DNA of 64,000 bases from a virus (IMGVR_UViG_651324045_000004:1-64000); one strand, 5' to 3'. Positions 27,010 to 39,132 are shown, counted from the stretch's first letter. Translations and numbers: made by a program. Notes: a model not told the origin generated them from the letters alone.

Positions 27010-29022
27010 CTACGAAAGTAGGCGTTGCATTTGCTTGATGAGCGTTTCGGCTAAATCACCAACATTGTTCAGACAGATGTTGTCGCGGTAGAAGTGACGC
27101 GGAGCGTCTGTCAAAATCCCGATCCCCAGAAGATGGATATCGGTATCCTGCTCAATCTGTTTTGTGACCATTTTCAGGTGGCCAGTCAAACCACGCCCCT
27201 GAGCCGCTGGACTTCCGTCACTAAGCACAATCATGATTTTGCGATCTTCCTGGCGGCCAGAGAAATGTTGAAGCAAGGCCAGTATGCTTTCTCCATCGAT
27301 ATTTTCAGCCAGTATCATCGTACCTGCGAGAGCGCCAAGGTTGCATATCGTTTGTTTGCTGGATATCGGCGTCTCCCACCCCTTGATAATTGGCAGAAAA
27401 AGCGCTTCAGAGCGGTTAAACTCGGACTTCCCAGGCATCGCCAGAGAAGATGTTGTGAAGCCGGTTATCATAGTTTTCACGTTGATACGCGCCAATGCAT
27501 CCGCCAGTGTGTAGGCTGCTGCACAAGCTGTCTTGATTTTTTGCCCTCTCATGGAGCCAGACATATCAATAACAATCTGCACGCATGAGTTGACCGCGCG
27601 TTTGACCTCCAGCTTGCGAAAAACTCGGTCATCATCGACGGACAGGCGATACAGACTTGGGCCATGCAGTCGGCCGCGACGCTGACCTGGGACAAACTGA
27701 TTGCGGTTCTGGCTGGCTATCGTTCGCTCAAGATCTTTAGCGAGTGTCGCGACGATGTCATCGCCAATTAGAGGCTTAATATTCTTATTGAAGACGGCCT
27801 CATGTTTTGGGATCACCATGTAGTTATCAGCGTCACCGTACATGTGGAACCCTTTCGGCGAAGTGGCCAGAACGTTTCTGAAGAACTCCGATGCGTGCTC
27901 AAGCCTCCCCATAAAGTCGTAAGTGCGCTCATACGGACGATAGCCGGTCGACAATTCGGATTCGCTGGAAATAATCATCTTCATTGCCCCTTCCATAGAC
28001 ATATCCATGGCGCCTTTTGGTAGTTTGGTCGACTCCAGCTTTTCCAGATCGCCTTTTGTTGGTTTGGGAATATCACCCGTTCCGCTTTCTGCATCGCTCG
28101 GTTCGTCCCCGATACCATCTGACTTTTTGTCTTCTTCGGATTCAGCAGAACCGCCATCTCCTGCATCGGCCGATGCAGCTTCACTTCCTTCGCTCTCGGA
28201 TGATTCCGGGGAACCATTTTCCTCCCCATCTCCAGGTGCGTCTGATTGTTCTTGCTCGTCAGACTCATCATGCCAGGGCAGATCGCTGCCACTACCACAA
28301 TCGTCTTCGGACGGTTCGCTTGACGATTTCCCTTTTCCTTTTTCTTTGCTATCTGAACCGTCAGGTTCTTTGCTTTCCATTGGCTTGTCGACCAGCAGTC
28401 GGACAATTAGCGCGGCCACTGCCACACTGTCGCTCGTGCTGCTTATTTTGGGGATCATCTTATCGACACCATGTTTAATCAGGATTGATACCGGCTCTTT
28501 AACGCTTTCCCAGCGGTCTTCCATGTAGTCGATGAACGGCGTTTGATCATTCCAAGCACGCAGCACGGGAACCAGATAGAACTCCATAAACATGCGGGTC
28601 TGATCGCCCAGCTTTTCAGCAATGGCCTCCATTTCTTTAGGAATGAAAACCGTATCGATGACATGCTTTTGTGTGTTGATGAGGTTTGCTCTGGAGCCTT
28701 TGAACATCTCCCCCATTTTTCGCTCAATGAAGGTGTCTTCTACGGCGTTCCAGACGAAGCTGGTGGCTTTCGTACTGTCTGTGAAAAGGACGTGAGCGAC
28801 TTCGTGATCGATGAATCCGCGTACCGCCATCAGGAACTTGTCGCTGGCGTCGTCGGGTATTGATGGTATGCAGATGCAGAGAGGTTCGCCGGCTTTGTTG
28901 TATTCAACATATGCCTTATCTCCACGTTCTATGACGGGGATGTTGCGTGCTACCAGCATTGAAACGACGTTTTTAATCGCCTCGCGAAACTTAGTGATAT
29001 CTTTAACTGAAGTCTTTTTCAT
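27010..29022 (-). CDS. CobT-like protein with a central poly-acidic S/E/D-rich region and a C-terminal von Willebrand A domain
   Basis: MIDAS motif QIVIDMSGSM. A roughly 100-aa acidic low-complexity segment. It is the partner of the CobS-like ATPase. Confidence 0.7.
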   Translation of the reverse strand: MKKTSVKDITKFREAIKNVVSMLVARNIPVIERGDKAYVEYNKAGEPLCICIPSIPDDASDKFLMAVRGFIDHEVAHVLFTDSTKATSFVWNAVEDTFIERKMGEMFKGSRANLINTQKHVIDTVFIPKEMEAIAEKLGDQTRMFMEFYLVPVLRAWNDQTPFIDYMEDRWESVKEPVSILIKHGVDKMIPKISSTSDSVAVAALIVRLLVDKPMESKEPDGSDSKEKGKGKSSSEPSEDDCGSGSDLPWHDESDEQEQSDAPGDGEENGSPESSESEGSEAASADAGDGGSAESEEDKKSDGIGDEPSDAESGTGDIPKPTKGDLEKLESTKLPKGAMDMSMEGAMKMIISSESELSTGYRPYERTYDFMGRLEHASEFFRNVLATSPKGFHMYGDADNYMVIPKHEAVFNKNIKPLIGDDIVATLAKDLERTIASQNRNQFVPGQRRGRLHGPSLYRLSVDDDRVFRKLEVKRAVNSCVQIVIDMSGSMRGQKIKTACAAAYTLADALARINVKTMITGFTTSSLAMPGKSEFNRSEALFLPIIKGWETPISSKQTICNLGALAGTMILAENIDGESILALLQHFSGRQEDRKIMIVLSDGSPAAQGRGLTGHLKMVTKQIEQDTDIHLLGIGILTDAPRHFYRDNICLNNVGDLAETLIKQMQRLLS

Positions 29023-29108
29023 GACATACCCATAAATAAATGCTTATTATTTATGGGTATGATAATCACAATCAATGAAAGTATAAAGCCAAAAAGGAAG
29101 GGTAAATC

Positions 29109-29327
29109 TTAGTTGGTGTGAATGCAAATGAGAGTGTAGTTCGAAATTCCCTGTACTAAAGCGAAATCCTTATCTAGATGATTAATATGGAAAAAAAGAT
29201 CATCGGAGCCTGCTATGTGTCCATCTTTCGCGCCCAGTTCGCAAATGATGTCGGCTCCGATCTGGTCACTCAAAGATATTGCTGATAGTTTTGTCGCCGT
29301 CGACATCCAGTTCAAAATTGCATTCAT
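29109..29327 (-). CDS. hypothetical protein
   Basis: 72-aa ORF at the edge of an AT-rich regulatory region. Confidence 0.35.
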   Translation of the reverse strand: MNAILNWMSTATKLSAISLSDQIGADIICELGAKDGHIAGSDDLFFHINHLDKDFALVQGISNYTLICIHTN

Positions 29328-29548
29328 GTTAATACCATTAAATAGTTTATTGCTTATTAGTATGTCTTAAATGATTCATGTCAAAGTTACTATTATTTTT
29401 TTAAGATTACAACAAATTTGCACCAAAAAAGCAGACTTAGCCTATTGATTTTTATTCTATTTTGTGGTTATTTAGCGCCGTCACCCAAAGTTGGCGGTGT
29501 GTATTTACATTTTTGGTTCAGTGGTTTAGTCTTGAACAATACGTAAAT

Positions 29549-29610
29549 ATGTGATTACTTACTAAAATGATTTAATAGTATGTGGTTACTTACTAAAATA
29601 ATTCAATACA
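29549..29610. repeat. Two tandem 31-bp direct repeats (ATGTGRTTACTTACTAAAATRATTYAATA) in the promoter region of the XRE-family gene
   Basis: Seen directly: 29549-29579 and 29580-29610. Confidence 0.6.
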
Positions 29611-29625
29611 AGGCAGACTATAACA

Positions 29626-29930
29626 TGTACGAACCCAAAGGGCGTTACCGTCCGTTTATGACCGCAGCGATGCTCACCTGTGGCAAAACACAAGCTCAGA
29701 TTGCAAAAGAAGTTGGATTTGAGAACGCTAACAACATTTCTCTCATCAAATCTGGCCGTGCTCATCTTTCGTTAGACAAGGTCATCCCATTCGCGAGAGC
29801 TGTTGGTGCGCCGCCAGACGATTTTATGATGATGTACTTATCCGAGAGATTTCCCGAAATATATGAATTTGTTAAAAAAATAAAGAATGAAAATGATGCT
29901 CTGAAGAGCAAGTTAGGCATTACTGATTGA
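29626..29930 (+). CDS. XRE/Cro-C1-type helix-turn-helix transcriptional regulator
   Basis: HTH segment CGKTQAQIAKEVGFENANNISLIKSGR. Start set at ATG 29626 (MYEPKG) with an AAGG SD, not the ORF-track start inside the repeat. Confidence 0.6.
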
Positions 29931-30954
29931 TCTTACATGTTTCAATTAAGAATTCAGAGTATGCTGACATTGCCTCGGACATCCGGTCAAGATAGTCGTG
30001 TCTGTCATAGACGCGATCTATTCCCTCAAGACTGTGGTTCATGATTTTACGAGCCACGTCTTGCTCTACACCGAGTCGAGAGAGTGTACTTCTGGCCGTC
30101 CTTCGTAAATCTCTGATTTCGAAGGGTGCCGGAAGGTTATCGGAAAGATAACCTCTACTCATAATTCTTCTTGATGCCTGAGCTATCAGAACCTTAGATG
30201 CAGGCTTCATTGCATTCTTTGGGGAGGGAACCAGCCAATCGCTGTTCCCGGCTGCGGCCATCATTTTATTAATGCACAGCTTCATTATGGGGCTAATGGG
30301 TAGTGAATGTTCACGACCAGACTTATTCCTACTACCCTGATTCCATACATCATTATTGAGATCGAATTCAGCTCGTTTAGCCCGGAGCACTTCATCCGGC
30401 CGTCTGGCTGAGCAGAGCACGAAACGCGCGGCCCAACGCGTGCTCTCTGAAACATCGGCAAAGTCCCACATGTGCCAAAATTTTTCCAGCTCATCATCCG
30501 ACAACACACGCTCCCGCGGTCTTGGCTTCAGTCCACCGGCTACTTTGTTAAGAGACATCGCTCCAAGTGGGGAAGTCTCGATCACACCCTGGAACTCACA
30601 CCACCCAAGGAACTGTTTTAAAACAGAAAAAACGCGCCGGCTTTGTACTAACTTGCCATCCAACACCAGGGCATTAATTAGTCTGTTAACTGTGAGGCGG
30701 TTGATGTCCGAAACTTTTTTGTTGCCGATCGCCGGCATTGCGTGAACGAGAATACAGTGAACACCTAGCTCTGGGCGCCGGCGCGTCACAAGGAGTGATA
30801 AGCGCGTGAAAAACATAAAGGCTTCACTGAATTTCGAATCGGCATCCATGGTCATCATTTGCGAACCGGTCATGGCTTGGCAGCGCTGGAGATATTGAAC
30901 TGTTTCAGCAGAACAATTTTCCAAAGCTTTATCGATTTCGAACGAATTTAACAT
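29920..30954 (-). CDS. int: Tyrosine recombinase / phage integrase (P4-like family)
   Basis: C-terminal catalytic residues (R...HDLRRT...RVYDRHDY). Start chosen at MLNSFEIDKA, preceded by GGAGG. The ORF-track N-terminal extension is unlikely. Confidence 0.9.
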   Translation of the reverse strand: MLNSFEIDKALENCSAETVQYLQRCQAMTGSQMMTMDADSKFSEAFMFFTRLSLLVTRRRPELGVHCILVHAMPAIGNKKVSDINRLTVNRLINALVLDGKLVQSRRVFSVLKQFLGWCEFQGVIETSPLGAMSLNKVAGGLKPRPRERVLSDDELEKFWHMWDFADVSESTRWAARFVLCSARRPDEVLRAKRAEFDLNNDVWNQGSRNKSGREHSLPISPIMKLCINKMMAAAGNSDWLVPSPKNAMKPASKVLIAQASRRIMSRGYLSDNLPAPFEIRDLRRTARSTLSRLGVEQDVARKIMNHSLEGIDRVYDRHDYLDRMSEAMSAYSEFLIETCKINQ

Positions 30955-31038
30955 CGCTGCCTCCATGTAACTGTATGCATATACAGTATTTAACGGTATT
31001 TTAGTTATAAGGTCAACCAAAGATAACTGGTTTTTTAC

Positions 31039-31071
31039 TGTGATTCCATACCTATAGAGTATGGAATCACA
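31039..31071. promoter_or_regulatory. Perfect 13-bp-arm palindrome TGTGATTCCATAC-ctataga-GTATGGAATCACA upstream of int. A second palindrome, ACTGTATGCATATACAGT, lies at 30970-30987.
   Basis: Seen directly. The position between the divergent int and cargo genes suggests an operator or recombination (att core-type) site. Confidence 0.5.
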
Positions 31072-31131
31072 AAAGGGCGATTTGAATAAATTTAGAGGCT
31101 GTAGCACAATGGTTGTACATAACATTGGAGA

Positions 31132-31722
31132 ATGCATATGGGCCTTGTGTCACCCATTGAAGAAGATGTTTATCTTGAGGAATCGGGATTCCGACGGAAA
31201 AAGTTTGTCTATGACAAGCGCGTTCATCATAGTTATATCTTTGTTGCCGGCGGTGAGGTTTACACCGTAGTTTTCGGGAGCATTAAAGATGAGAAGACGT
31301 TTCAGAAAATTGGCTACAGCTTAGAGCCTGGCATGGCTTTCCCTCACAATGGGATGTCAGAGGTTTACTTCGATATTTGGATTGATCGTGAGTCTTTCGG
31401 AGATTTCCGGCACGTAAAATTCAAAGGGTTGGCGGGTGGTGTTGTATTGGAACAAGTAGCTTTAGCAATGCTTCAACATTATCAAACCTTTGATATTGGA
31501 GGGTTTGTTTTCCAAGCTGCTTCCGGTGGCGTAGCCGATATTGATAGGAAAACTTCCCTCGAAGAGACATACGATTATATTCTTGGGTTAAAACACGAAC
31601 AACGTTATAATAAGAAAACAGGATTACCTAAAGGTAAACCCAGGAAGCTCCTTCCAGACTTCCTGAAAGTTTACAAAGATGACTCAACCGGGAGGGCTTG
31701 TTATGCCGTTACGTCGCAATAA
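31132..31722 (+). CDS. hypothetical protein (integrase-adjacent cargo)
   Basis: 196-aa plus-strand ORF. Confidence 0.45.
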   Translation: MHMGLVSPIEEDVYLEESGFRRKKFVYDKRVHHSYIFVAGGEVYTVVFGSIKDEKTFQKIGYSLEPGMAFPHNGMSEVYFDIWIDRESFGDFRHVKFKGLAGGVVLEQVALAMLQHYQTFDIGGFVFQAASGGVADIDRKTSLEETYDYILGLKHEQRYNKKTGLPKGKPRKLLPDFLKVYKDDSTGRACYAVTSQ

Positions 31723-31996
31723 ACAGAAGCGTGCACTGGTGCAGAATGGTGAGAAACACCTGCTGCAAAGCCTTGCTGCGGCTACTGCAGCGACCCGCAA
31801 CGAACAAGTTCTGGTCTTAACGCCAGAAGGTGTTAAATATTGCAACATCATTAGAGAAGGTGGCAATGTTTCAACTACCTCATCCATGGAAGCTTTACAC
31901 AATAGCTTTGCCCAAAGACAGAAGAAATCCTCTGCTACCATGTTGCGTCGAAAACTGAGCCAGGTATCTCTCAAACGAGAATTCCAGGAAATATAA
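31679..31996 (+). CDS. hypothetical basic protein
   Basis: Plus-strand ORF ending at the bidirectional terminator. The true start is possibly the internal MPLRRNKQ. Confidence 0.35.
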   Translation: MTQPGGLVMPLRRNKQKRALVQNGEKHLLQSLAAATAATRNEQVLVLTPEGVKYCNIIREGGNVSTTSSMEALHNSFAQRQKKSSATMLRRKLSQVSLKREFQEI

Positions 31997-32022
31997 ACAA
32001 AGGCCCTGTTCGGGCCTTTGTT
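31996..32022. terminator. Bidirectional terminator (AAAGGCCCTGTTCGGGCCTTT)
   Basis: GC hairpin with flanking A/T runs between convergent gene sets. Confidence 0.6.
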
Positions 32023-32026
32023 GTTT

Positions 32027-32350
32027 CTACCATTTATTGAATCCAAACTCATCCTTTTCACGCAGCAGTGGTTCGCCACGATACCGGTGTCCTTTCAATG
32101 AATCGCGCTTAGTTGGCACTTCATCATAATCAACAGCTGTCTCGAAAAAGTGATGCGCCTCACTCGGATCAGCAAAACACCAGCGATACCGGAATGGGGA
32201 GACCTCGTCAATATCCATACAGACTGACGTCGTGAATGCCAGTTTCAGCACGCCAATCCAGCTATCGTCGGCCAGCTGCCGCACTCTCAAAAAACCTTGC
32301 TGTAAAAGGTATTCATGCATCTCTTCGGGTGTCATTCGTTTAAAGCTCAT
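32027..32350 (-). CDS. hypothetical protein
   Basis: 107-aa ORF. Confidence 0.45.
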   Translation of the reverse strand: MSFKRMTPEEMHEYLLQQGFLRVRQLADDSWIGVLKLAFTTSVCMDIDEVSPFRYRWCFADPSEAHHFFETAVDYDEVPTKRDSLKGHRYRGEPLLREKDEFGFNKW

Positions 32351-32439: not shown

Positions 32440-32700
32440 TTAAAGGATGGATGCGATGGTCGCCAGTTCGGTGTATCCGCCAATCGGCTCGCCCTCGACG
32501 AAGATCTGCGGAACCGTTCGCACCGGCTTCCCGACCAGCTCGCCCAGAGCGACAGCGTCAATGCCGGCTTCGACAATGTCGATATACTCATAGTCACCAT
32601 GACCCTGAGATTTTAACTGCTTAGCCAGCTCTACCGCACGTTTGCAGTAAGAGCAGCTGTCCTTTCCATAAATAACGATTTTCATGCTTTCCCTTAGCAA
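32440..32700 (-). CDS. Glutaredoxin (NrdC/NrdH-like)
   Basis: CSYC active site, TVPQIF, GGY motif. 86 aa. Confidence 0.75.
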   Translation of the reverse strand: MLRESMKIVIYGKDSCSYCKRAVELAKQLKSQGHGDYEYIDIVEAGIDAVALGELVGKPVRTVPQIFVEGEPIGGYTELATIASIL

Positions 32701-35293: not shown

Positions 35294-35493
35294 GTGTTTT
35301 CTCTTTGTAGTTTATTTGTATGGTTCGCAGCGTTACTTTTCTGACCGTACAGTCTGAATTTCACGCTACTTGCACTTTACGTTAGTGCCAGACGAGGCTT
35401 GTGGCTCGGGCCTAATGGCTGTTTATGCGGTTGATGGCCGCACCATTTTGGCCTCGACACTAAGAGATGTATGGAATCACATCATCTTAGATT

Positions 35494-35569
35494 TGGTGCC
35501 CAAGCAGGTGTTGAACCTGCATCATCGGACTCAGCATCCTCTCGACTTACCGTTTTGTCGCATTGGGCA
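35494..35569 (-). tRNA. tRNA-like element 1: 7-bp acceptor stem (TGCCCAA/TTGGGCA), D-stem CGAC/GTCG, T-arm GCAGG-TTCAACA-CCTGC. The anticodon arm is imperfect.
   Basis: Folded by hand. The anticodon stem has mismatches, so this may be a degenerate or unusual tRNA. Confidence 0.35.
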
Positions 35570-35605
35570 TTCAATCTGAAGGACTCTCGAAAAAGCCCTT
35601 TAGGT

Positions 35606-35688
35606 TGGCGCAAACAAGCGGAATCGAACCACTCTCTACCGGATAAGACGTCTTCCTCGGTCGCAGTCAACCAGACTGCTTTGTTTGC
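35606..35688 (-). tRNA. tRNA-like element 2: perfect acceptor (GCAAACA/TGTTTGC) plus GCCA 3' end, D-arm GCAG-TCTGGTTGA-CTGC, T-arm AGTGG-TTCGATT-CCGCT. The central region contains the palindrome GAAGACGTCTT instead of a clean anticodon arm.
   Basis: Folded by hand. About 83 nt, so it could be a class-II-like or aberrant tRNA. Confidence 0.35.
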
Positions 35689-37337: not shown

Positions 37338-38662
37338 TCCTTATCCCCTATGCGGTCTTCAGTGTCACGCAGACAGGACGGCCATTTCAGACGAGGGTGA
37401 CGCAAACTGCCGTCTGGCGTCTCTTCGTGGGCATTGACCTTCACGATGCGCCCGATGTACTTGTCCTGGTTGTTCCAGATCTCATCCAGGTACATGTGCT
37501 TAATGCCCGATGCCTCGACCTCAACACCGTTCTCCAGGCGAATAGTTACCGAGCCGAGAGTGTGGGCGAATGCCGAATCCTCTTTACCTGGCTTGAAGCC
37601 GATAATCTCACCGTCAGCTTCGATCTCGTCCTTCATCTTCCACCAGCTCTTGGTGCGCTTAAACTCGTAAACGGAGAACGGATCTTTCGCCATATAGCCT
37701 TCTTCGTTGGCGTCCAGAGCCGCCATGAACAAGTCGATAAACTCTTTATGGCTATGTACTAACTGGAAGTCATGCAAACGCACGTCGCCTTTGTACTGAC
37801 TGTCCGGGCGGCTCTTCCAGTTTGTCCAGCTGCACAAGTCGATATGGCGGTCTTTTAACTTGCGGCCTTCTTTCTTGTACTCCTTGGTTTTGGCAATGGC
37901 TTTCCATTCCGGCAAGAAGTAATCGAAGACGTGGAATACGGCGCCAATAGCTGATACGCCTTTTTTACGCAGTGCTGAGATGGAATCGTTGAACGAACCG
38001 GCCGTCGCTTCGCCATCAAAGAAGATGTGCTTATGCGGCGTCATACGCGCCAAATCTAATACCGCTGGCTTCAGATGGTCGAGAGACGTTACCGGGTTGC
38101 CGGTACGAGACAGGAAGTTAACCTCTGCCTCGTCAACGATGACTTCGGCAATGACGCGCATCCCGTCCAGCTTGAGGCTGGCAATCATCGGGAACTTGGC
38201 TTTCGGGTTTTCCTTGAACGGGTACTTGTCGCCTTTTTCTTTGTACGACGTCGCCAGCTGAACCTCGAACACCGGAATCGGGTTGTCGAAGATTTTATTG
38301 CACAGGCTAATACCGATGCCGGCCTTCGGATCTTTAATCAGGAAGCGGCGGAACACGTCTTGCCCTTCCTCTGTCATGTCTGAAATAGCCTGCTCCACCA
38401 TCGCAATAGCGCTGTTACCAGTGAGCTTACGGCTGGCCAAGGAGTTGAGAATATCGATAGCGTCTTCATCAGAGATTTTATTCTCAAGCGCAGGCTCCGC
38501 GACGCTGTATTTCTTCACCCCGAATCGGATGAATGGGTTAAGCATCAGTGACACCATGCTTTGTTCGAATGCGTCCAGCTCAGCCAGGGCTACTTTCTTG
38601 GCATTGGTTCCCATAGCTTTAATGGCGTCTAGTTTTCCACGCAGAGCAATCAACTTTTCCAT
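37334..38662 (-). CDS. ATP-dependent DNA ligase
   Basis: Adenylation motif I ASLKLDGMR (KxDG) and further NTase/OB-fold motifs. 442 aa. Confidence 0.85.
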   Translation of the reverse strand: MEKLIALRGKLDAIKAMGTNAKKVALAELDAFEQSMVSLMLNPFIRFGVKKYSVAEPALENKISDEDAIDILNSLASRKLTGNSAIAMVEQAISDMTEEGQDVFRRFLIKDPKAGIGISLCNKIFDNPIPVFEVQLATSYKEKGDKYPFKENPKAKFPMIASLKLDGMRVIAEVIVDEAEVNFLSRTGNPVTSLDHLKPAVLDLARMTPHKHIFFDGEATAGSFNDSISALRKKGVSAIGAVFHVFDYFLPEWKAIAKTKEYKKEGRKLKDRHIDLCSWTNWKSRPDSQYKGDVRLHDFQLVHSHKEFIDLFMAALDANEEGYMAKDPFSVYEFKRTKSWWKMKDEIEADGEIIGFKPGKEDSAFAHTLGSVTIRLENGVEVEASGIKHMYLDEIWNNQDKYIGRIVKVNAHEETPDGSLRHPRLKWPSCLRDTEDRIGDKE

Positions 38663-39132
38663 TATTGAAGCTCTCCCGCAACAACGACAGGCTCATCCTG
38701 AGAATCGAGGATGTCGCACTGTTCCCTTTGCTCTACCATCGGTAGATCACTCGGTTTTGGTTCGTAGGCATCAAGAAAATCGACGGCGTCCATGGAGAAA
38801 ATCTCATTGTCTTTGTTTTTGAAAATGACAGTCAAAGGGAAACCGGGCTTGGCGGTAAGCACGTTGCTAAGGCACACCATCTCGTAGACGTCGTCAGAGT
38901 CCTTAGCGGCCCACAGCTTACATTCAGGAACGATCGGGCGGAAAACGATGTTGCGGTTAATCTGGAAGCTGTCGAACCAGAGTGTTCTTTCACCTTCGTT
39001 GACAATGTCAATGCTCACGGCAATACCATGAGACGATGCTGCCTTTGGCAAGCAATTAATCCATTGCGGAACGTCCGCGGTAGTGTAGATCATCTGGCAT
39101 ACTTGGCCTACTTGTGGCTCGAACTGACTCAT
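38662..39132 (-). CDS. hypothetical protein
   Basis: 156 aa. Conserved RBS at the start. Confidence 0.5.
   Translation of the reverse strand: MSQFEPQVGQVCQMIYTTADVPQWINCLPKAASSHGIAVSIDIVNEGERTLWFDSFQINRNIVFRPIVPECKLWAAKDSDDVYEMVCLSNVLTAKPGFPLTVIFKNKDNEIFSMDAVDFLDAYEPKPSDLPMVEQREQCDILDSQDEPVVVAGELQ

Follow-up and report, generated by a model that had tools for sequence, protein, structure and literature searches.

A candidate Cre/loxP-like multimer-resolution module with a LexA box at the recombinase promoter in SSU5-type phage-plasmids

The 64,000-nucleotide viral sequence IMGVR_UViG_651324045_000004:1-64000 (hereafter the window, meaning this whole stretch) is part of an SSU5-type phage-plasmid of 108 kb from Klebsiella pneumoniae, and our subject is a module in it that consists of a tyrosine recombinase gene, a 33-bp inverted repeat upstream of that gene and a LexA box at its promoter. 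The 3.5 kb around the module are 100% identical to the K. pneumoniae plasmid pfekpn2511-2 (NZ_CP068974.1), a circular, non-mobilizable replicon of 108,342 bp, and near-identical copies of the region are present in other Klebsiella plasmids of 108-112 kb. The plasmid codes for RepB and ParB, for tail, capsid and terminase proteins, and for cobT/cobS, nrdAB, phoH and grxA. The module is flanked by the immunity region on one side and by the main cargo hot spot on the other (Table 1). A preliminary description of this DNA had placed the recombinase gene divergently from a gene for a helix-turn-helix (HTH) protein, but the gene coordinates show a convergent pair with an 11-nt overlap. It had also named two cargo open reading frames (ORFs) and a bidirectional terminator at their end, and these are present as described, the latter as a hairpin whose stem is flanked on either side by a T-rich tail. 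In the 64-kb window there are four perfect inverted repeats whose arms measure 11 bp or more and whose spacer does not exceed 10 bp; three of them fall within 29025-32022, while shuffled sequence contains none with arms of at least 13 bp.

Table 1. Features in and around the recombinase module, and the cargo found beside the site in related elements
Feature	Position	Strand	Details
cobT	27010-29022	minus	
orf72	29109-29327	minus	first gene ahead of cobT, cobS and dnaE; position of CYRAN_46 in phage Cyrano
Tandem 31-bp duplication	29548-29608	plus	5' region of the HTH gene; each unit holds TGTGRTTACTTA
HTH gene	29625-29930	plus	101 aa
Tyrosine recombinase gene	29920-30954	minus	344 aa; identical PGAP coordinates in NZ_CP068974.1
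LexA/SOS box	30969-30988		AACTGTATGCATATACAGTA; 3 mismatches to the 20-mer consensus; abuts the recombinase -10
Predicted recombinase promoter (P_int)	30988-31016	minus	-35 TTGACC (31016-31011), 17-nt spacer, -10 TTAAAT (30993-30988)
Putative recombination core site	31039-31071		TGTGATTCCATAC-CTATAGA-GTATGGAATCACA; 13-bp inverted arms, 7-bp AT-rich asymmetric spacer
Cargo-side flank of the site	31072-31095		AAAAGGGCGATTTGAATAAATTTA; about 25 bp, semi-conserved, with outward-facing TTGAAT; homology to close relatives ends there
Cargo ORF 1	31138-31722	plus	194 aa
Cargo ORF 2	31703-31996	plus	97 aa
Hairpin	31996-32022		GC-rich, 11-bp stem, T-rich tails on both sides; terminator ending the cargo pair
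orf107	32027-32350	minus	
grxA	32440-32700	minus	
Solitary exact arm copy	35469-35481	minus	TGTGATTCCATAC followed by ATCTCTT; 14 nt from the predicted tRNA-Gln
Cargo, this window			two ORFs of no assigned function
Cargo, close relatives L019 and L020	L019 8943-12196 (restriction-modification)		YafO toxin cassette; in L019 type I restriction-modification about 1.8 kb past YafO
Cargo, common K. pneumoniae type			colicin E1 immunity and YafO
Cargo, PO552			hypothetical ORF, then RelE/antitoxin
Cargo, Xenorhabdus	L146 1-2166		ParE/Phd; pyocin-type DNase with immunity
Cargo, uncultured element L151	L151 1-1284		Tad2 and Acb2/Tad1 anti-defence genes past two small ORFs
Cargo, E. coli plasmid pYY76-1-1			IS26 resistance region beside the site
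Cargo, pMT1	L004 1-2904		caf1A and caf1 of the F1-capsule operon, replacing grxA

The inverted repeat at 31039-31071, already recognized in the preliminary description, is indeed perfect; it lies 84 bp upstream of the recombinase start codon and its chance expectation is 0. A repeat of the same form (13-bp arm, 7-bp spacer, 13-bp arm; hereafter 13-7-13) is present 77-173 bp upstream of the recombinase gene in all of the at least 20 lineages checked. In most phage-plasmids the arms belong to the class TGATTCCATAC, the inner 10 bp (GATTCCATAC) being unchanging and the outer bases varying symmetrically: TGT/ACA here, AAT/ATT in the pHCM2, pMT1 and Cyrano types and TTT/AAA in Klebsiella sp. PO552. 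The AT-rich, variable spacers between them are CTATAGA, CTAAGAA, CTACTAT, CTATTAA, CTACCAA, CTTACAA, CTTCCAA and TTATATA. A second arm class, TGACTCCAGAC, with two substitutions mirrored in the arms, occurs in megaplasmids of Pantoea, Rahnella, Erwinia and Ewingella and in a Xenorhabdus phage-plasmid; the recombinases of these elements are 44-50% identical to that of the window, and the 7-bp spacing is the same, with spacers such as TTAATAG and CTATTAA. On the megaplasmids the recombinase gene and its site stand among unrelated metabolic genes, with no HTH gene, LexA box or phage genes. This standalone occurrence indicates that recombinase and site form a self-contained pair, in which the arms track the recombinase and not the replicon or a regulator. 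That the arms follow the recombinase clade is also the strongest argument for reading the repeat as a core site bound by the recombinase rather than as an operator for the HTH protein.

Several features of the repeat would suit an operator, bound by the HTH protein or another factor and controlling the divergent promoters of the recombinase and the cargo: it lies between two divergent promoters and upstream of the outward -35-like TTGAAT, solitary copies of the arm are dispersed in the manner of asymmetric operators, the repeats 5' of the HTH gene carry an 11/13 match to the arm, and the adjacent gene in Cyrano is the top-expressed one in the lysogen. However, on the megaplasmids the repeat accompanies the recombinase in the absence of an HTH gene, its arms differ from one recombinase clade to another, the combination of 13-bp arms and a 7-bp spacer is tyrosine-recombinase geometry, and the spacer retains an asymmetric CT...AA bias whichever way it is turned, a bias for which a symmetric dimer would not select. 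An operator function is thus rather improbable. The spacer is inverted between relatives with flanks of 92-94% identity, reading CTATAGA in the window (31052-31058) and TCTATAG in L019 (7159-7165) and L020 (6155-6161), and both orientations are found in both arm classes. Template switching at the hairpin is one possibility for how such flips arise; they are compatible with multimer resolution because the orientation of the spacer relative to the flanks is irrelevant to a resolution site. A literature search with the site sequence returned unrelated primer matches only.

The recombinase matches the Pfam family Phage_integrase (PF00589) with an E-value of 1.8e-8, and its match to the P4-type NCBIfam model PRK09692 is partial, beginning at profile position 138 of 413. 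It consists of the core-binding and catalytic domains only: the arm-binding domain (PF13356/DUF4102) is missing clade-wide, and in the alignment the P4-type outgroup proteins have about 95 additional N-terminal columns that are absent from the entire recombinase clade. This clade is tight (at least 44% identity), with members mostly of 340-380 aa, and the named ones all come from Enterobacterales; every locus examined lies on a plasmid or a plasmid-sized contig. The next relatives outside it are 23-31% identical, and nearly all of those among the matches listed are P4-type proteins of 400-450 aa with PF13356. The alignment also covers the condition under which the preliminary description would have fallen, loss of the catalytic tyrosine: Y316 is invariant, and R185, K211, R284 and H307 are invariant or nearly so. 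The His-II position of the HxxR box (281) is Arg throughout the clade and His in the P4-type outgroup. The AlphaFold model of the recombinase (pLDDT 89, pTM 0.79) finds its best Foldseek matches in the cores of Tn1549 Int and lambda Int, XerH and IntI (E-values of about 1e-7 to 1e-5 over about 310 columns), whereas Cre chains rank 39th or lower (E about 0.03), and a sequence search of the PDB with the recombinase gave no match. On the strength of these sequence and model comparisons, the recombinase is P4-like by descent and Cre-like in architecture, yet outside the Cre family. The earlier label of a P4-like integrase therefore fits its ancestry but not its make-up, as the arm-binding domain that defines such integrases is missing. 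The annotation of the plasmid contains no other site-specific recombinase and no serine resolvase.

The module has a plasmid-only distribution. A tblastn search with the recombinase retrieved 971 plasmid records from PLSDB, 931 of them non-mobilizable. With the Cyrano-type recombinase and site as the query, 255 places were found in 252 of the 5,426 complete E. coli genomes, every one of them on a plasmid and none on a chromosome. A scan for GATTCCATAC-N7-GTATGGAATC in one genome each of 185,579 species recovered seven enterobacterial contigs of 11.8-169 kb, most of them of phage-plasmid size, and three Amycolatopsis loci; the search of host genomes proposed in the preliminary description thus yielded no full copy of the site in the representative Klebsiella, E. 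coli and Salmonella chromosomes of this set. The Amycolatopsis palindromes (L015 5430-5462, L017 7791-7823, L018 3097-3129) have the 13-7-13 form and the same 10-bp core; we judged the likeness coincidental and the palindromes unrelated, probably an operator, because the one copy examined (L015) lies between an HTH-TPR regulator gene and a gene for a 1017-aa protein. The gene order cobT, small ORF, HTH gene, recombinase gene, site is kept in Cyrano, pHCM2, pMT1, PO552 and Enterobacter, as well as in Xenorhabdus, Serratia and Nissabacter elements and an uncultured element. The common K. pneumoniae type shares the cobT-to-site order, its PLSDB table listing no small ORF. This synteny agrees with the presence of tyrosine recombinases among the persistent genes of the SSU5 supergroup (PMC7969092). 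By these sequence comparisons, the recombinase-site module is core equipment of the supergroup and no island.

The island view, in which the module was a nested mobile element with its own att core, accordingly finds no support, as the module is syntenic core in every genus examined and has no second flanking site. The broader idea of an integrase, which would insert the element or itself at a chromosomal or tRNA att or capture cargo in an integron-like manner, could draw on the P4-type ancestry of the recombinase, the exact arm copy beside the predicted tRNA-Gln, the hypervariable cargo from the site onward, a LexA control that recalls integron integrases, and the pMT1 sequence, in which homology to pHCM2 is lost about 3 bp or less from the arm. 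Against it stand the zero chromosomal places among the 255 in E. coli and the lack of a full site in representative chromosomes, the missing arm-binding domain, the syntenic position of the module, and a cargo region that has no second flanking sites, breakpoints outside the spacer and some cargo delivered by IS26. We regard an integrase role as most improbable.

The second element of the module is its promoter. The sequence at 30970-30987 had been described as a perfect palindrome; it reads CTGTATGCATATACAG, with 7-bp arms (ACTGTAT and ATACAGT) flanking a non-palindromic GCAT, and this CTGT-N8-ACAG form is that of a LexA box. The box is unique: every other CTG-N10-CAG 20-mer of the 108-kb plasmid differs from the consensus at more than 6 positions. 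When nine lineages are aligned, the -35 (TTGAY), the -10 (TAATAT/TTAAAT) and the LexA box emerge as conserved blocks amid diverged sequence; P_int was recognized from these blocks, a generic promoter scan having failed to flag it. A box with 1-4 mismatches occupies the same place in Cyrano, pHCM2, pMT1, the common K. pneumoniae type, Enterobacter, Serratia and Kluyvera, and is kept at the recombinase promoter in L151 and L141 too; its position is conserved in more than 10 lineages despite their diverged flanks. It was not found at P_int in PO552, Nissabacter or Chimaeribacter, nor in any element with TGACTCCAGAC arms. We infer that LexA represses P_int: from the position of the operator directly after the -10, the recombinase would be low in the lysogen and raised by the SOS response. 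In RNA-seq of E. coli LF82, the Cyrano recombinase gene CYRAN_44 goes from a log2 value of 5.6 (stationary phase in LB medium) to 10.3 (6 h in macrophages), a rise of about 25-fold (PMC9928086 S1 Table), and the macrophage setting is described by the authors as genotoxic and SOS-inducing (PMC9928086).

Further LexA boxes were observed at other places. In Chimaeribacter (L012 7189-7208, L016 7683-7702, L010 182-201) a box lies about 1.9 kb from the site instead of at P_int; in L012, the only contig of this genus whose ORFs were examined, it is located just past a gene for a 194-aa protein that converges on the recombinase gene. Cyrano (OV696614.1) has a second strong box, TACTGTATGTGTATACAGTA, at 89275-89294, directly upstream of CYRAN_98, which codes for a 129-aa S24 peptidase of UmuD/HumD-like appearance; the Klebsiella plasmid is without a counterpart of this box.

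Multimer-resolution systems such as Cre/loxP of P1 and ResD/rfsF of F classically combine an arm-less recombinase encoded on the plasmid with one simple site beside its gene. This likeness leads to the proposal that the module is probably a Cre/loxP-like multimer-resolution system which, in phage-plasmids, is gated by the SOS response. We take multimer resolution to be the probable core function because the recombinase is arm-less and plasmid-borne, the site is single and simple, and no sign of chromosomal integration was seen. Of the three options offered in the preliminary description (dimer resolution, a lysogeny switch, a nested mobile element), dimer resolution is thus the favoured one, the arm co-variation and the presence of the module on non-phage megaplasmids adding to the arm-less recombinase with its one adjacent 13-7-13 site and to the absence of the Cyrano-type pair from E. 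coli chromosomes. In the proposed mechanism, two recombinase monomers would bind the inverted 13-bp arms, by analogy with the P1 and F systems, after which two sites would synapse and strands would be exchanged across the 7-bp spacer. In a plasmid dimer the two sites would be direct repeats, so that recombination would run in the direction of resolution and yield monomers for segregation by the par system. The LexA operator would limit this activity in the lysogen and release it during SOS, when RecA-driven multimerisation and lytic replication increase.

Several observations weigh against this proposal. A resolvase lowered by LexA in the lysogen is an odd design for routine maintenance, and no recombination product was observed in the sequence comparisons. 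The replacement of His-II by Arg in the whole clade leaves the activity of the recombinase unproven, and the rise of CYRAN_44 in macrophages fits LexA control but does not prove it, since many other plasmid genes rise as well. Solitary arm copies are unneeded by a simple resolution system and look more like dispersed operators. Finally, in comparison with a 96%-identical relative, positions 31092-32042 of the window are replaced, one breakpoint falling some 20 bp beyond the site and the other within the final codons of orf107, with no second site flanking the cargo.

The same SOS timing would suit lytic growth more than lysogenic maintenance, and a simple site without adjacent accessory sites should permit fusion as well as resolution. 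The recombinase could then be a maker of concatemers, raised by SOS to fuse monomer circles at the site for packaging, or it could cyclise terminally redundant infecting DNA in the way of P1 Cre. Cyclisation by Cre in P1 and the Int-dependent formation of dimers in lambda red gam recA infections are precedents. We nonetheless consider this improbable: the same module resides on non-phage megaplasmids of 300-600 kb, which package nothing.

A different role for P_int is suggested by the neighbouring HTH gene. The preliminary description assigned it to the XRE family; an HTH gene is present, but its XRE-type Pfam matches to HTH_3 and HTH_31 score 21.3 and 19.4 bits, under the gathering thresholds of 27 and 23. 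The protein matches PHROG 8, 'transcriptional regulator', with an E-value of 4e-7 and has 48% identity to CYRAN_45, which is the 'putative repressor' of phage Cyrano; a Pfam search found no S24 self-cleavage domain in its 101 aa. It is a probable immunity repressor. The start at 29625 is conserved in relatives and in the alignment; RefSeq places the start at an ATG inside the second 31-bp repeat (29580-29930), giving 116 aa. The gene is divergent from orf72 across a 297-bp region that holds the 31-bp repeats. These tandem repeats, noticed earlier, are real (29548-29577 and 29579-29608, 27 of 30 bases identical), and they are plausible operators because a third, weaker and degenerate copy of TGTGRTTAYTTA lies at 29462-29473 in the same region between the HTH gene and orf72. 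The duplication is present in L019 and L020, whereas L141, an 82%-identical relative, has a single copy; judged from these sequences it is a recent event, confined to the sublineage. Searches with PADLOC, Pfam, NCBIfam and PHROGs returned nothing for orf72 or the cargo ORFs. In Cyrano, the gene at the position of orf72 (CYRAN_46, orf70) goes from a log2 value of 4.3 to 10.8 in macrophages, a change of +6.4 (PMC9928086).

A lysogeny switch, as raised in the preliminary description, is possible but in another form: the LexA box had been missed, and the switch-like divergent pair is that of the HTH gene and orf72, not that of the recombinase and HTH genes. In this form, cleavage of LexA would fire P_int, whose transcript would run antisense through the repressor gene and on into orf72-cobT-cobS-dnaE; readthrough would lower repressor synthesis and start lytic replication. 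Alternatively, the recombinase would act on the dispersed arm copies. Transcription from P_int during SOS could interfere with repressor expression and extend into the early genes because P_int is co-oriented with the early operon and the genes overlap. Gene tables were checked for 12 phage-plasmid loci, and in all of them the recombinase gene and the HTH gene overlap tail to tail, leaving no room for a terminator; the Xenorhabdus, Serratia and Chimaeribacter loci, however, show a gap of 0-44 nt in place of the overlap, and in the window a weak terminator-like hairpin (29910-29897) follows the recombinase stop. The HTH protein is without a self-cleaving S24 domain and the sole LexA box of the Klebsiella plasmid sits at P_int, which would make this promoter the link to DNA damage; yet Cyrano has its second SOS box before an S24 peptidase gene, the box is missing from P_int in the phage-plasmids PO552, Nissabacter and Xenorhabdus, and the megaplasmid homologues function without any phage switch. 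Cyrano is induced 39-fold by ciprofloxacin (PMC9928086), and CYRAN_44 and CYRAN_46 rise jointly in macrophages (+4.7 and +6.4 log2), but no virions are made there in spite of the 25-fold rise of the recombinase gene. The position of the Chimaeribacter box beyond the gene that converges on the recombinase, and a weak structural echo of recombinase-like phage repressors (9rgl, SroF), would also be in keeping with such a switch. On balance, induction through P_int is the main alternative to multimer resolution, though an unlikely one, and it can coexist with a role in recombination. A composite in which P_int doubles as the SOS sensor of the prophage, with a maintenance recombinase co-opted as the trigger and the arm copies as extra binding sites, appears similarly doubtful.

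The solitary arm copies are best described from Cyrano (OV696614.1), where they lie at 37803, 38815 and 47010, all within 6 kb of the site. They are 20-mers of the form AATGATTCCATACATC(T/A)CAT with the shared extension TGATTCCATACATCTC; the two outermost are in inverted orientation, separated by 9.2 kb. One of the three copies overlaps a start codon and one lies inside dnaE. The 11-mer core has five copies in Cyrano, two of them the arms of the palindrome, against 0.05 expected genome-wide. The copy at 35469-35481 of the window is orthologous to that at 38815 of Cyrano, and its outer bases co-vary with the arms of the palindrome. The recombinase ORF itself contains a further exact copy, on its antisense strand (30338-30351), that is largely explained by coding, since it encodes the conserved motif DVWNQ; pHCM2, pMT1, the common K. 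pneumoniae type, PO552, Enterobacter and Kluyvera share this copy down to the synonymous positions, whereas it is not conserved in Cyrano, Serratia, Nissabacter and Chimaeribacter. A scan of viral contigs with the 14-mer TGATTCCATACATC gave mostly chance matches and re-found only the three solitary sites of the Cyrano type.

On the other side of the site the DNA differs between relatives, so that a hypervariable region starts at the site (Table 1). We interpret it as a permissive hot spot and not as an integron-like capture system, because a second site is lacking and the replaced stretch has its breakpoints outside the spacer. The pMT1 sequence loses its homology to pHCM2 no more than about 3 bp from the outer arm edge, which is the pattern expected from recombination between two identical sites; pMT1 has one site only. 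In L153 (1-8749) an IS26-bounded blaTEM-1/sul2/aph region lies on the cargo side. Two large plasmids with the module were examined for junctions of site-specific cointegrate fusion and give no evidence of one mediated by the recombinase: one has the normal context and the other an IS26 resistance region beside the site. The 194-aa cargo protein of the window belongs to an unannotated, Enterobacterales-restricted family found on plasmids and on Mb-sized contigs, and is not homologous to the Cyrano gene at the same position. A comparison of its AlphaFold model (pLDDT 80) with PDB folds gave no significant match, and a GNAT- or toxin-like fold was discarded (TM score about 0.3, E above 0.03).

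Among known systems, Cre/loxP of P1 and Dre/rox of D6 come closest in layout: each belongs to a phage-plasmid and joins an arm-less recombinase to two 13-bp inverted arms around a short asymmetric spacer upstream of the gene, and with Cre/loxP the module would also share the presumed role in multimer resolution or cyclisation. The recombinase has no homology to Cre beyond the superfamily fold (Foldseek E about 0.03, against 2e-7 for the lambda and Tn1549 Int cores), and the window differs from Cre/loxP in a spacer of 7 instead of 8 bp, the LexA box at the promoter and the Arg at His-II. The nearest sequence relatives outside the clade are the P4-type integrases (P4, SXT, CP4-57 IntA), with which the C-terminal signature DLRRT ... 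H ... Y-DRHDY is shared; in contrast to these, the recombinase of the window lacks the PF13356 arm domain, is plasmid-only, has no tRNA or chromosomal attB and is paired with a simple symmetric core instead of a complex attP. In the plasmid resolution systems ResD/rfsF of F, Rsd/crs of the Salmonella virulence plasmid and TnpI/IRS of Tn4430 the gene likewise adjoins its cis site, on large low-copy plasmids, and the system is self-contained and host-independent; unlike IRS and crs, the site of the window has no adjacent direct-repeat accessory motifs. Integron IntI offers a parallel for a LexA box on the promoter of a tyrosine recombinase and for divergent variable cargo that starts at the site, whereas the window has neither attC sites nor cassettes, its breakpoints are off the site, and the IntI structure is one of several equivalent fold matches. 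MrpR/YopR of SPbeta and SroF of phi3T are recombinase-fold proteins of temperate phages that bind scattered repeated sites, to be compared with the weak 9rgl match and the dispersed arm copies here; these proteins, expressed in the lysogen, no longer have the catalytic residues, whereas the protein of the window keeps R, K, R, H and Y and would be repressed by LexA.

Phage-plasmids are typically without integrases (PMC12977533), and in the SSU5 supergroup the tyrosine recombinase has been listed merely as a persistent gene (PMC7969092). We found no paper describing its target site or its regulation, and none combining LexA, a tyrosine recombinase and multimer resolution. The module thus is apparently undescribed, a lox-like recombinase-site pair of P4-integrase ancestry. 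SSU5-type phage-plasmids are common in clinical Enterobacterales, and the group includes pMT1 of Yersinia pestis and pHCM2 of Salmonella Typhi; for these elements the analysis provides a defined 33-bp site, a second natural specificity class and an SOS box that is conserved at the recombinase promoter. It also places their main cargo hot spot, including the F1 capsule operon of pMT1, right next to the site. If the recombinase is active on the simple site, it would be a candidate tool for genome engineering that is unrelated to Cre, and the two arm specificities, TGATTCCATAC and TGACTCCAGAC, would form a new orthogonal pair of lox-like tools. If P_int feeds the lysis-lysogeny switch, this would explain the response to DNA damage of repressors that have no cleavage domain.

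Some minor features of the surrounding sequence complete the picture. The tRNA-like pieces mentioned in the preliminary description are not found inside the region; an Rfam scan of the window and of the Cyrano locus detected tRNAs only, and the sole one predicted here, a tRNA-Gln at 35495-35569 called by ARAGORN, is under the Rfam gathering score. The adjoining 35590-35680 resembles a degraded tRNA, and the syntenic place in Cyrano holds three intact tRNAs. Between the stop of orf72 and the start of cobT lies a perfect hairpin (29025-29061) with a 15-bp stem (CATACCCATAAATAA / TTATTTATGGGTATG) and a 7-nt loop, which stops 2 nt short of the cobT ATG and has a folding z-score of -3.9 as minus-strand RNA. 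It may be an attenuator, a terminator or an element masking the ribosome-binding site. In Cyrano, expression drops about 30-fold between the genes corresponding to orf72 and cobT.

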